64,000 nucleotides of DNA, taken from contig CBDCRU010000002.1 in the NCBI GenBank assembly GCA_965221115.1, forward strand, positions 628,172 to 692,171, read 5' to 3'. The translations under genes and the position numbers were made by a program. Source of the DNA: Alphaproteobacteria bacterium. GTDB taxonomy: Bacteria; Pseudomonadota; Alphaproteobacteria; SP197. Within the stretch, counting starts at the first letter, position 1, and each line of letters opens with the position of its first letter. The notes beneath the pieces are model-generated. The model was not told where the DNA came from. It saw nothing but the letters and a program-made list of their open reading frames with translations, and ran no database searches. Positions 25,189 to 27,893 of this stretch are shown piece by piece.

Positions 25189-25590
25189 TCAGGGGTGTCG
25201 GGGTTCTCCCATGACGGAGAACCCGAGCGTCGTCGCCACCGAAGCCTGTCGCGTATCCAGTGTTGCGACCGACAGGTCACCGGGTTGTGGAGAGACGTAA
25301 AGAGCGGTCGCCAAATGCCAGAGATCCGCACCGCGCAGGTATCCTGCTTCGAGAACCGACACCAACTCCCCCGTGAGTGGCCGATCAGGGAGGACCCAAT
25401 CGATTCCCGCGAGGCTGTGTTCCTGAAAGACAAGGTTCTCGCGTGCGAATGCCGCCCGCGCTTCGGCCTCAAGCAGGTTGGACGAAACGAGGCGTGTGCA
25501 TGCATTGAGATGCCGGGCCAGGCCGGATGCACCGGGTTCATCAAAAATGATGGCTATCAGTGCGGAGGAGTCGACGTAGGCGACACTCAT
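25189..25590 (-). CDS. vapC: PIN-domain ribonuclease toxin VapC
   Basis: MSVAYVDSSALIAIIFDEPG with the acidic residues of a PIN domain; 4-bp overlap with the upstream antitoxin gene. Confidence 0.85.
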   Translation of the reverse strand: MSVAYVDSSALIAIIFDEPGASGLARHLNACTRLVSSNLLEAEARAAFARENLVFQEHSLAGIDWVLPDRPLTGELVSVLEAGYLRGADLWHLATALYVSPQPGDLSVATLDTRQASVATTLGFSVMGEPRHP

Positions 25591-25865
25591 CCGTCCCGCT
25601 CATCGAGGAATCGCGTGAGCGCGCCGGGCCGGCGCTCAACGGGTCCCATGTTTCTCCCTGAGATGGCTGCTTGGACCAGGCAACCGTTGCGTTCAAGTTC
25701 TGCGAGCCGATCGTCAAGTGCAGGATTGGCCTGTTCCTTGATCGCGCGGATCTCTGCCACGGGCTCTCCGCGGTAGGAAACCGTAACCGTCTTGCCGTCG
25801 CGCACCTGGCGGAGCACTTCGGAGAAACGCGCCTTTGCCTCGTACACGGAATATGTGATCGCCAT
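25587..25865 (-). CDS. Phd/YefM-family antitoxin
   Basis: MAITYSVYEAKARFSEVLRQVRDGKTVTVSYRGEPVAEIR is the classic Phd/YefM N-terminus; ATG 25865 chosen over the longer ORF. Confidence 0.8.
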   Translation of the reverse strand: MAITYSVYEAKARFSEVLRQVRDGKTVTVSYRGEPVAEIRAIKEQANPALDDRLAELERNGCLVQAAISGRNMGPVERRPGALTRFLDERDG

Positions 25866-26366
25866 GAATGCATCATAACTAGTCAGTCTAGTCATTGCAA
25901 CGAGCCGACACGTTTCGTGCACGTACGCTGTGCCGTTACGGGTGATCGCTGGCTACCAGTCGAGCACCAAGGAACCCGCGCCTCCGACCGCTGCAGATAA
26001 CATCTTGTCCCTCGGATTTCGCTCCTCTTGTCGTTGCCGTTGCGGCCCTCCCGTGACATCTGCCCGTCGGCCGTCCAGAACGCCGGCCACGGCCAGGAAA
26101 GGCACACCCGAACGGATCGAGGCCAATCGGCCGCCACGCTCGACGATCCGGCCGGGCGCGGGAAGCAGCGGAGGTGAGGCCGGTGCGTCAGAACCCTGTC
26201 AGCCAGATACGATGACCGTATCCGCTGGTTCGATCAGTTGCAGGTCAAGGGGCGCCTGGATGGTGAATCCGGCCGCTGCTCTCAGAGGTCCGCTCTCAAT
26301 CGCGCAGATCTCGAACCGGTACCAGCGCCGGTCCGGTTCCGGTCGGGGCAGACCAAATGTTTCGAT

Positions 26367-27710
26367 GGGGAATTATATAGGAAAGTCACCATGATCGCCT
26401 TGACTTCCGGGCGTTCACGAGGGATGATGCGCGTGTGGTTTGGGGTCGCCTGCCCCGCCCCGCCAAACGGCCAATGGAGGGCCGACCGCGCATGGCTCAG
26501 GATACTCACGAATATCGGCAAGTCACCTACCGGTTGCTCCCCGGCAGCCGGGCGAAGGCGCGCCAGCTTGCGGCCACCGCGGGCGCGTGCCGCTTCGTCT
26601 GGAACATGCTTCTCGATCAGCAGGAGCAGCTTGTTGCGGCGGCGAGACTGGCGGGAGCGGACCGGCTGCCAGGCGTGTCGTTCTTCACGCTCGGCAAGGC
26701 CTTCACGCAGCTTCGACGTGTCACGCCGTGGCTGCAGGAGATGCCGTTCGCGCCGGTACGTTACACTCAAGTACCAGGCGGATGCGTGGCAGGCGTTCTT
26801 CTCCGGACACGCCGGACGGCCCCGCTTCAAGCGTCGGGGTCAGGACTCGGTGACGCTCCCGGACAACGTCCGCATCCGGAACGGCATGCTGCACGTCCCG
26901 AAGATCGGGCCGATGCGGCTTCGCCGCCGGGGAGGGAACCCTCACTCCGAAGGCGAGCCGGTGCAGGCGGTGATCAGGCAGCACTGCGGCAAGTGGTACG
27001 CCACGGTCTGCTACCGCGTGGCGTCTGTCGAGCGGCCCGACGACGGTACGGTGACCGGCCTCGACATGAACACAGGCCAGGTGGCAGACAGCAACGGGCA
27101 TATTCACCATGCACCGAAGACGCGCCGCCTCGAAGCCCGCAGGCGGCGCTACCAGAAGAAGCTGGCGAGACAGGTGCGCGGTTCCCGGCGTCGCAAGAAG
27201 ACGCGGCGCCAGCTTGCCCGAACGCAACGCCGGATCGCCATGTGTCGCCGCAACTGGCAGCATCATGTTTCCCGGGCCCTGGCTGGCGGAACCGTCGTCA
27301 TCGAGGATCTCAACACAAAGGCCATGACACGGAGCGCAAAGGGAACGGTCGAGCACCCCGGGACGAACGTGAAGGCGAAGACCGGACTGAACCGGGAAAT
27401 CCTCGCCACCGGCTGGGGCGACTTGCGTGCCATGCTCGACTACAAGGCCCCGCGCGTCGTGGTTGTCAATCCGGCCTACACGAGCCAAACCTGTGCGGCG
27501 TGCGGCGCGGTTGACGCCGCTTCGCGCCGGGGCAGGACATTCGAATGCGTGGCCTGCGGCCATGCGGACCATGCGGACCTGAACGCGGCCCGCACCATAC
27601 GGCGTCGGGGACAGGCGCTGCTGCACGGGGAGGTTGCCGCATCGAGCGGGCCTGCGAACCGTGAAACGGATCGGTGGGCCGCATGAATGTGACTCTCCTA
27701 TATATGTCCC
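26367..27710 (+). mobile_element. TnpB-only insertion element (IS200/IS605-family tnpB, IS1341-like) bounded by ~23-bp imperfect inverted repeats and flanked by a 7-bp direct repeat TTTCGAT
   Basis: Left GGGGAATTATATAGGAAAGTCACC versus reverse complement of right GGGACATATATAGGAGAGTCAC; TTTCGAT at 26360-26366 and 27711-27717. Confidence 0.6.
26492..27686 (+). pseudogene. tnpB: tnpB (RNA-guided nuclease of the IS200/IS605 family) with a -1 frameshift near 26763-26768
   Basis: N-terminal part YRQVTYRLLPGSRAKARQLAATAGACRFVWN in one frame; the OrfB/RuvC-like region and the zinc finger CAACG...CVACGH continue in the +1 frame; a single missing base in ...gtacgttacactcaag... would restore VRYTLKYQADAW. 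Confidence 0.8.
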
Positions 27711-27893
27711 TTTCGATAGCGTAGCCGAACTCGACCGTGTAGAGACCGTCGCAGACCAGCGCGACGACGGTGGAATGCGGATGGACATCTGTCATTCAGG
27801 CAGGATCCTGCCGACATCGGGCATTCACGCCACTCGTCAATCGTGGGCGGTATCCGGAGACTGACCGCTCCGGTTTCCGGTTGGAGGGCACCG

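Follow-up and report, generated by a model that had tools for sequence, protein, structure and literature searches.

tnpB-only elements with IS1595-type inverted ends: a decayed copy in an alphaproteobacterial genome and its relatives

The 64,000-nucleotide stretch of alphaproteobacterial DNA considered here (contig CBDCRU010000002.1, positions 628,172 to 692,171; hereafter the window) contains, within an ftrA-like gene, a mobile element whose sole gene is tnpB and which ends in terminal inverted repeats (TIRs) flanked by a short target duplication. We consider it probable, at about three chances in four, that this element is a decayed, non-autonomous member of the IS1595 family (ISNwi1-like) with only tnpB and an omega-RNA as cargo, moved in trans, and we propose guide, target-adjacent motif (TAM) and homing roles for its products and flanks. 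The copy in the window is a dead relic, and the family to which it belongs is the interesting part: the same type of ends, with 8-bp duplications that vary from site to site, surrounds related tnpB genes in several bacterial lineages, IS1595 transposase genes and miniature inverted-repeat transposable elements (MITEs), the right end takes part in an RNA fold supported by covariation, and the insertion sites carry an asymmetric base signature.

Ends, target duplication and gene of the tnpB elements

The left TIR of the element (coordinates in Table 1) matches the reverse complement of the right one, GGGACATATATAGGAGAGTCAC, at 19 of 22 positions without gaps. A repeat finder returned this pair as the longest inverted repeat (I1, 28 nt, 82%), and a degenerate pattern describing both arms had only 2 sites in the 64 kb and 0 matches in 100 shuffles; the imperfect inverted repeats of about 23 bp (20 of 23 positions) proposed in the first-pass annotation of this DNA are a real and unique pair, which we measure at 22 nt. 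The 7-mer TTTCGAT occurs at 26360-26366 and 27711-27717, abutting both TIR tips. This word is not rare by itself (12 copies in the window versus about 7 expected), and the telling point is its position directly against both tips. The same annotation had called it a 7-bp duplication: the duplication is genuine, as the relatives and the host reading frame indicate, but it extends over 8 bp, one of which is mismatched (TTTCGATG / TTTCGATA). The left TIR is taken to start at 26368 because a 93%-identical relative, L001, has a perfect 8-bp duplication, TTGTGAAA. Once the element and one repeat copy are removed, the host reading frame is restored (…GYAIETFGLPRPE…; …GYAIETFGLPRPEPDRRWYRF…), so that before the insertion the site must have had the repeat only once; the reconstructed 81-aa N-terminus of the host gene matches NCBIfam FtrA (E 1e-23).

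Using a protein-guided scan with one genome per species, we collected 80 related loci, mostly from metagenome-assembled genomes (MAGs), and set the element boundaries by copy-to-copy comparison within genomes. The relatives come from Alpha- and Gammaproteobacteria, Rhodothermales and Caldilineaceae MAGs; several genomes are multicopy (complete MAGs OY759767.1, OZ244844.1, OZ220707.1, OZ241385.1 and OZ241972.1, and the CBDEVD, CBDCUM and CBDBMQ assemblies), with 84-99% identity between copies of the same genome. A recognisable TIR pair was found in 61 elements of 1.19-1.46 kb from four bacterial lineages. The outer part of the TIR (GGGRMTTATATM) is conserved, while the inner 12 nt vary by lineage and yet agree between the two ends of each element; left and right TIRs show a consistent difference at position 4. 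The flanking 8-mers are identical over 8/8 positions in 34 of the 61 elements and over 7/8 in a further 7, and they are unrelated from site to site (TTGTGAAA, AATGTTTC, AAAGGGTT, TGAGTTAA and others), from which it follows that the repeat in the window was made from host DNA when the element inserted and acquired its one mismatch later. This search for other copies had been proposed as a check on the ends, and the shared TIR type with variable 8-bp duplications fixes both the ends and the duplication. An open frame of at least 370 aa is present in 57/61 elements, a crude measure which the frameshifted window copy also passes. To judge from these sequences, the family has been active repeatedly. 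A second TIR-like site in one locus (L057) is another decayed tnpB copy.

These relatives also settle whether a TIR and a repeat might simply have come to stand around a tnpB pseudogene by chance. Such a juxtaposition could draw on the 12 occurrences of TTTCGAT in the window, but the TIR pair is unique where none is expected, 61 relatives show the same pattern, the 8-bp duplication being perfect in 34, and the host frame is restored on removal, so that we regard this explanation as already refuted.

The tnpB gene of the window lacks 2 nt after position 26765 relative to the intact copy of L001 (93.4% identical) and is therefore a pseudogene, which agrees with the frameshift noticed at first reading. 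When repaired, its product matches NCBIfam guided_TnpB (203 bits) and the Pfam families HTH_OrfB_IS605, OrfB_IS605 and Cas12f1-like_TNB, and aligns over its full length with the ISDra2 TnpB structures (8h1j/8exa). The RuvC motifs GLDMN, VIEDLN and HADLNAA and a CxxC…CxxC zinc finger are in place in the repaired frame and in the intact relatives, the window copy itself being frameshifted. A protein search of a plasmid collection gave no match above 38% identity, and hence no annotated close relative there. A putative -35 hexamer, TTGACA, lies inside the TIR in most relatives, and likewise in transposase-bearing IS1595 elements.

Several further observations on these genes and copies are recorded here. 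For residues 216-384 of the repaired TnpB, the top solved-structure match is not ISDra2 but a 540-aa chain named 'Transposase' (9j09/9udi, E 4e-29), and the insert EDLN..MT.SAKGTVE.PG.NV..K.GLNR is common to both. A leader of about 70 nt 5' of the tnpB start (26420-26491 in the window; about 2930-3000 in L001-L004), GATGATGCGCGTGTGGTTTGGGGTCGCCTGCCCCGCCCC.CCAAACGGCCAATGGAGGGCCGACCGCGC, is near-identical in L001-L004, although the TIRs of L003 and L004 are of other types and their TnpBs are only 76-77% identical; the leader includes a GGTTTGG…CCAAACG hairpin. Within the first tnpB codons, ATATCGGCAAGTCACC (26512-26527) is a direct repeat of the inner left TIR ATATAGGAAAGTCACC (26375-26390) at 14/16 positions, which could be chance or a second transposase-binding site. 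The contigs L231-L236, carrying the TnpB P0058, are 1.4-1.6 kb long and barely exceed the element, as is common where short-read assemblies break at a high-copy repeat. In six tnpB copies of a Paracoccaceae MAG (L007 at about 775-2800, L009, L011, L012, L014, L015) a group II intron of about 2 kb stands on the minus strand at the left TIR tip, always at the same position, encoding a 446-aa reverse transcriptase/maturase and matching Rfam group-II-D1D4-6 (130.9 bits). The 8-bp duplication of L007 (CAAAAAAG) encloses intron and element together. Either the intron homes to the left TIR or intron and tnpB element transpose as a unit.

IS1595 transposons and MITEs with the same ends

Using the TIR pattern GGGRMTTATATM-N6-TTGACA, we scanned a metagenome collection. 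About 20 tnpB elements were among the environmental matches. At five matches (L098, L108, L128, L164, L185) the first gene, of 308-333 aa and starting 45-60 bp inside the TIR, belongs to Pfam DDE_Tnp_IS1595 (133 bits), with Zn_ribbon_IS1595 also recognised; the TIR type bounds DDE_Tnp_IS1595 genes at these loci and at L207, L210, L217 and L220. Homologues of the IS1595 transposase are extremely numerous, and at their loci stand complete transposons that have the same TIRs and are flanked by perfect 8-bp duplications (Table 1). Within IS1595, the ISNwi1 group is marked by ggnnatTAT ends and by an 8-bp duplication. Members of IS1595 usually make 8-bp duplications, and the TIRs of the related eukaryotic Merlin elements begin with GG (PMC8101967).

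The likeness between the two kinds of element extends beyond the tips. The TIR of one tnpB element (L148) differs from that of a transposase element (L164) at 3/24 positions only, and in the transposase elements, read by eye, the TTGACA of the TIR is followed after 17 nt by a -10-like hexamer ahead of the transposase gene; tnpB sits in the same position and orientation as that gene. Restriction-modification-type cargo is found 3' of the transposase in IS1595 elements from sponge-associated MAGs and metagenomes (N6_Mtase with Methylase_S; N6_N4_Mtase-HNH), which fits the idea that the IS1595 ends of this lineage readily acquire nuclease or methylase cargo. The same TIR type also delimits MITEs of 193 bp, the flanking 8-bp duplications of which are perfect in two cases and 7/8 in one.

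Since the MITEs have the same ends, these ends work without an internal transposase; and since the same ends are found on autonomous transposons, MITEs and tnpB-only elements, the last are most economically read as non-autonomous IS1595-type elements, presumably moved in trans. What the tnpB elements have in common with IS1595 is the 8-bp duplication and the ends shared with transposase-bearing members; the window element encodes tnpB and no DDE_Tnp_IS1595 transposase, a protein that has an N-terminal zinc ribbon in most groups of the family, and it can belong to IS1595 only as a non-autonomous derivative. The initial view that a TIR pair with a duplication is the footprint of DDE-type transposition is thereby borne out, the same TIR type being carried by IS1595 DDE elements with 8-bp duplications and by the 193-bp MITEs, and its suggestion of a tnpB captured inside, or mobilised in trans as, a TIR element gains support, with IS1595 as the family that would be responsible.

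A DDE transposase from outside IS1595 (of the ISL3, IS6, IS66 or IS256-like type, or an undescribed one) could also have made the 8-bp duplications, as several insertion sequence families do, the likeness of the TIRs being then convergent or fortuitous, and the lack of a transposase partner in the window and in the flanking DNA searched would suit this. We consider it improbable: the TIR match covers 21/24 positions and extends to the variable inner part and to the TTGACA within it, the IS1595 transposase gene lies 45-60 bp inside the TIR in the position and orientation of tnpB, and a GG start with an 8-bp duplication fits IS1595 and Merlin.

Not all matches to the TIR pattern proved to be insertion sequence ends. 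The translations of ten other metagenome ORFs (open reading frames) adjoining TIR matches were read by eye; one resembles a divergent TnpB and the rest look unrelated. About 35 human-gut matches (L092, L095, L101, L110 and others) with the string GGGAATTATATAAATTTTTTGACA stand upstream of a conserved, apparently housekeeping ORF pair and were rejected as ends; the string is probably a chance match to the pattern, likely in the promoter region of apparent amino-acid-biosynthesis ORFs. The scan of viral contigs gave a single chance match, in a phage tail region.

The right end as RNA and the asymmetric target site

It had been recommended to look for an omega-RNA at about 27550-27710. Even at a permissive E-value, the element had no match in an Rfam scan, and no Rfam family is recognised at this 3' end; an alignment of 19 diverse right ends nonetheless supports a structured RNA there by covariation. 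The alignment contains a hairpin (stem A). The closing pair of a long-range stem (stem B) switches between G-C (11 sequences) and C-G (8 sequences), and the hairpin that it encloses has many compensatory changes. Counting a proposed pseudoknot, 93.6% of the cells are paired, versus 82% in shuffles, and the covariation score is 0.308 versus 0.123 (reached by 0/500 shuffles); in slid controls pairing falls to 31-59%. In this pseudoknot the loop of stem A would pair with the six bases that end the element and form the tip of the right TIR; loop and tip are GGGACU / AGUCCC in 21 elements, GGGAAU / AUUCCC in 2 elements and GGGACA / UGUCCC in the window and L001. In a GGGAUU clade the fifth pair is a U·U mismatch, so that the support is good, not perfect.

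All lineages have a terminal hairpin located between stem B and the tip, the 3' arm of which is the inner, lineage-specific part of the right TIR. Swapping TIRs between lineages weakens this fold in 21/21 cases (mean -12.7 versus -7.7 kcal/mol, p 4.8e-7); this test supersedes an earlier fixed-window duplex test, which was noisy (p 0.01). The same swap at the left end has no effect (p 0.20), and no left hairpin co-varying with the TIR was found. As the effect is seen at the right end only, the feature belongs to one strand and one end, as is expected of an RNA and not of a transposase site. The modelled scaffold ends only with the element itself, which would make the guide the neighbouring flank, namely the right duplication copy and the DNA that follows it.

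We then reconstructed 41 empty sites of tnpB elements and counted base frequencies around the duplication. The base directly 5' of the duplication (position -1) is G in 39/41 sites, and it is G in the window as well (base 26359). The first three duplicated bases are mostly A/T, with A at +1 in 31/41, and outside the duplication there is a weaker A at -3; no target of 4-5 nt is conserved, the G being the sole conserved flanking base. The mirror position (+9) is C in only 15/41 sites. At the occupied right junction the corresponding position is always C, the base with which the TIR ends, and this rules out a 9-bp duplication including the G. In transposase-bearing IS1595 relatives, G occurs at -1 in 3/13 independent sites; the Fisher p of 6e-8 was computed with 2/13, before L203 was re-read as G, and was not recomputed. 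With a guide beginning at the TIR tip, a TAM would have to occupy exactly the position of the G. From this we infer either that TnpB of this lineage may require a minimal TAM ending in G, so that only such insertions persist, or that the transposition of tnpB elements may be biased to such sites.

With both ends and targets described, the elements can be compared with an ordinary IS200/IS605 (IS1341-type) element, in which the left TTTCGAT would be the target or TAM, the right one a terminal cleavage sequence, and the 'TIRs' the left-end and right-end hairpins. The best matches of the TnpB are indeed to IS200/IS605-type models, a hairpin is present at the right end, and a single locus cannot separate a duplication from a target-like right terminus. 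The relatives can: the same ends are flanked by unrelated 8-mers (TTGTGAAA, AATGTTTC, AAAGGGTT and others), so that the repeat is host DNA, no 4-5-nt target is kept beyond the G, the left end has no hairpin covarying with the TIR, and the same ends bound DDE transposase elements and MITEs. This explanation is very improbable, and the element is, as first noted, atypical for IS200/IS605, given TIR pairs in 61 relatives and variable 8-bp duplications.

The principal competing explanation of the signature itself is that the oriented G and A-rich bases reflect a target preference or orientation bias of the transposase lineage that moves the elements, and have nothing to do with TnpB. The transposase-bearing relatives too choose AT-rich 8-mers, the 13 control sites are few and come from other IS1595 lineages, and the consistent left/right TIR difference at position 4 could make the transpososome asymmetric. 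DDE transposases, however, normally give palindromic target logos, and here G at -1 in 39/41 sites is opposed to the mirror C in 15/41; the signature extends across at least 10 TIR families and four bacterial lineages, with presumably different transposases; and it falls exactly at the TAM site expected for a guide that begins at the TIR tip, a position at which the right junction, when occupied, always has C. We hold this explanation to be possible, if on balance unlikely.

Taking the trans-moved IS1595 derivative as the favoured explanation, the history of the element may have been as follows. An IS1595-type DDE transposase encoded elsewhere would bind both GGGRMTTATATM… inverted ends, and the element would be cut and pasted into AT-rich sites, an 8-bp staggered cut giving the 8-bp duplication. 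The window copy would have inserted in the ftrA-like gene, then lost tnpB by the 2-nt deletion and gained one mismatch in the duplication. In the intact relatives, a promoter within the left TIR or beside it may drive tnpB, and the 3' end of the transcript would fold into the omega-RNA, its last hairpin using the inner right TIR and the six-base TIR tip forming a pseudoknot with the upstream loop. With the DNA just outside the right end (duplication and flank) as guide, TnpB would cut the allele that lacks the element and has a single 8-mer between left and right flank, and the element would be copied back by recombination. The G preceding the duplication would be a minimal TAM, and the occupied right junction has C instead. 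More tentatively still, TnpB might be functionally coupled to a cut-and-paste transposon, with the TIR absorbed in the omega-RNA scaffold, a single G as TAM, and either persistence only of insertions whose unoccupied allele can be cut or a part for TnpB in choosing the site; this would be a bacterial counterpart of Fanzor, and we regard it as conceivable but doubtful.

Several points weigh against these proposals. The window copy is dead. The window and about 480 kb of flanking DNA contain no IS1595 transposase, none with matching TIRs was identified, within the DNA so searched, in the genome of any tnpB element, and we found no composite element with both transposase and tnpB. A search of the window and of the flanks of the 80 relatives for zinc-ribbon signatures and for ORFs that recur gave only the group II intron reverse transcriptase and housekeeping genes; 20 kb of context around nine sites of the TnpB P0058 contains no IS1595 gene; and among the best 120 matches of the IS1595 homologue none was recognised as coming from a tnpB-rich genome. 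The ISNwi1 subgroup label (ggnnatTAT ends) is provisional. For the signature, the controls amount to no more than 13 sites, the G stands at only 4/6 sites of the more distant tnpB elements met in the metagenome scan, and a TAM of a single base would be unusually short for TnpB.

The features of the window and of the elements with the same ends are collected in Table 1. In the interrupted host gene, GlxA-like sequence seems to run on in the same frame after the in-frame TGA (…ASIRSGVPFLAVAGVLDGRRA), and it looks as if the gene decayed independently of the insertion. Just downstream of it lies a pair of genes for a PIN-domain toxin and a Phd/YefM antitoxin (25189-25922 on the minus strand; 25953-26201).

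Table 1. Features of the element in the window, of its host gene and of elements with the same type of ends
Feature	Position	Strand	Remarks
Mobile element	26368-27710		1343 bp; sole gene tnpB
Left target-site duplication copy TTTCGATG	26360..26367	+	7/8 match to 27711-27718; relatives with perfect 8-bp duplications
Left TIR GGGAATTATATAGGAAAGTCAC	26368..26389	+	IS1595-type, GGGRMTTATATM and inner part; TIR type common to 61 relatives and IS1595 transposase elements
Promoter-like site TTGACT-17-GATGAT	26400..26428	+	Upstream of tnpB; 1 site vs 0.2 expected; consensus match only
tnpB pseudogene	26492..27686	+	2-nt deletion after 26765; repaired product 398 aa
RuvC motif codons of tnpB	D 27063-27065, E 27303-27305, D 27576-27578	+	
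Omega-RNA-like scaffold, minimum extent	27602..27710	+	Covariation-supported; no Rfam match
Stem A	27602-27606/27614-27618	+	Loop GGGACA 27608-27613
Stem B	27624-27627/27660-27663	+	Encloses hairpin
Terminal hairpin	~27673-27698	+	
Pseudoknot partner TGTCCC	27705-27710	+	Predicted to pair with stem A loop
Right TIR GTGACTCTCCTATATATGTCCC	27689..27710	+	Doubles as terminal-hairpin 3' arm and pseudoknot strand of predicted omega-RNA
Right duplication copy TTTCGATA	27711..27718	+	With following bases (to ~27730), predicted guide segment
ftrA/GlxA-like host gene, 5' part	27719..27795	-	ORF; start codon 27793-27795
ftrA-like host gene, continuation past insertion	26199..26359	-	Ends at TGA 26199-26201
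Complete IS1595 transposon L108	9082-12721		3640 bp; duplication AACGGGAA
Complete IS1595 transposon L210a	L210 5928-9283		3356 bp; duplication CATACAAA
Complete IS1595 transposon L217	5928-8693		2766 bp; duplication TAAATATG
Complete IS1595 transposon L210b			Outer element with L210a nested; 7229 bp including L210a; duplication TTTGTAAG
IS1595-family transposon L220	5947-10066		Cargo-bearing
193-bp MITE, L150	1316-1508	reverse	TIRs GGGGCTTATATCCATGAGTTGACA / …CATGGATATAAGCCCC
193-bp MITE, L152	4741-4933	reverse	TIRs GGGGCTTATATCCATGAGTTGACA / …CATGGATATAAGCCCC
193-bp MITE, L184	1438-1630		TIRs GGGGCTTATATCCATGAGTTGACA / …CATGGATATAAGCCCC

Relation to known TnpB systems

TnpB is the ancestor of Cas12, and its biology is known almost wholly from the IS200/IS605 and IS607 families, which excise scarlessly. 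The families ISL2, IS630 and IS1031 make duplications of 2-3 bp. These three are the DDE families named in a 2026 review, according to which DDE transposons should gain little from OMEGA, as their excision already leaves a break (PMC13565253). In their main text, Altae-Tran et al. 2023 describe six TnpB branches (DDE-1 to DDE-6) linked to DDE transposases, all with inverted terminal repeats, state that solo TnpBs carry ends like those of transposase-bearing systems and are 'mobilised in trans', and name IS630 as the only DDE family (PMC10691335). IS1595 appears neither in that main text nor in the 2026 review; the supplement of Altae-Tran et al. stands outside this comparison, so that the present clade could be one of the six branches. 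A full-text literature search for TnpB with IS1595 or DDE_Tnp_IS1595 gave nothing relevant. The association of DDE transposons with TnpB is thus known in general, and, as far as can be seen, the link to IS1595, the breadth of lineages, the re-use of the TIR in the RNA and the oriented target signature are new.

The present elements resemble the DDE-associated branches in having TnpB in an inverted-repeat transposon, the 3' end of tnpB near the transposon end, and solo copies with shared ends, and are unlike them, as far as those texts describe them, in the use of the TIR in the scaffold and in the target asymmetry, which appear only here. With the ISNwi1-like group of IS1595 they share the GGG..TTAT start of the TIR, the 8-bp duplication, the -35 hexamer in the TIR and the presence of cargo between the ends; they differ in that the window element has no transposase, that the cargo is an RNA-guided nuclease, the RNA of which would re-use the right TIR, and that the G is oriented. 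The lineage bears directly on the doubt expressed in the review, as it is multicopy and mostly intact in several lineages, has tnpB as sole cargo and a TIR within the predicted guide RNA, and shows a signature absent from its tnpB-less sisters; the benefit of TnpB to a cut-and-paste transposon becomes directly testable in bacteria. If TnpB is coupled to these transposons, they would be a natural system in which to ask whether RNA-guided homing is of use to a transposon whose excision leaves a double-strand break in any case, which current reviews doubt.

Elements of the IS200/IS605 family have no TIRs, make no duplication and insert beside a fixed 4-5-nt motif (PMC13565253). The window family is like its IS1341 group in encoding only TnpB, in an omega-RNA, here a predicted one, that overlaps the 3' end of the gene and in a size of about 1.3 kb, and unlike it in its TIRs, its 8-bp duplications, the absence of a fixed 4-5-nt target and the absence of a covarying hairpin at the left end; such elements should not be annotated as IS200/IS605. 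Like MITEs, with which they coexist in the form of the 193-bp elements having the same ends, they have TIRs and a duplication but no transposase, are multicopy and would be moved in trans, and unlike MITEs they carry a full-length, mostly intact and apparently selected protein gene together with a structured RNA.

A further parallel is eukaryotic. A tnpB gene between IS1595-type ends is a rare bacterial arrangement resembling the way in which eukaryotic Fanzors travel: as in Fanzor1 and Fanzor2* (Yoon et al. 2023, PMC10711439), a TnpB homologue is the sole gene of a non-autonomous, duplication-making TIR element, and TIRs are built into Fanzor guide-RNA scaffolds (PMC10711439). The present case differs in being bacterial and of IS1595 type, and in that the duplication would be left in the guide here, where in Fanzor it is absorbed into the scaffold. 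Just as TIR transposons of eukaryotes captured Fanzor, the family offers such a case among prokaryotes, and its compact TnpBs, with a possibly minimal TAM, are of interest for genome editing.

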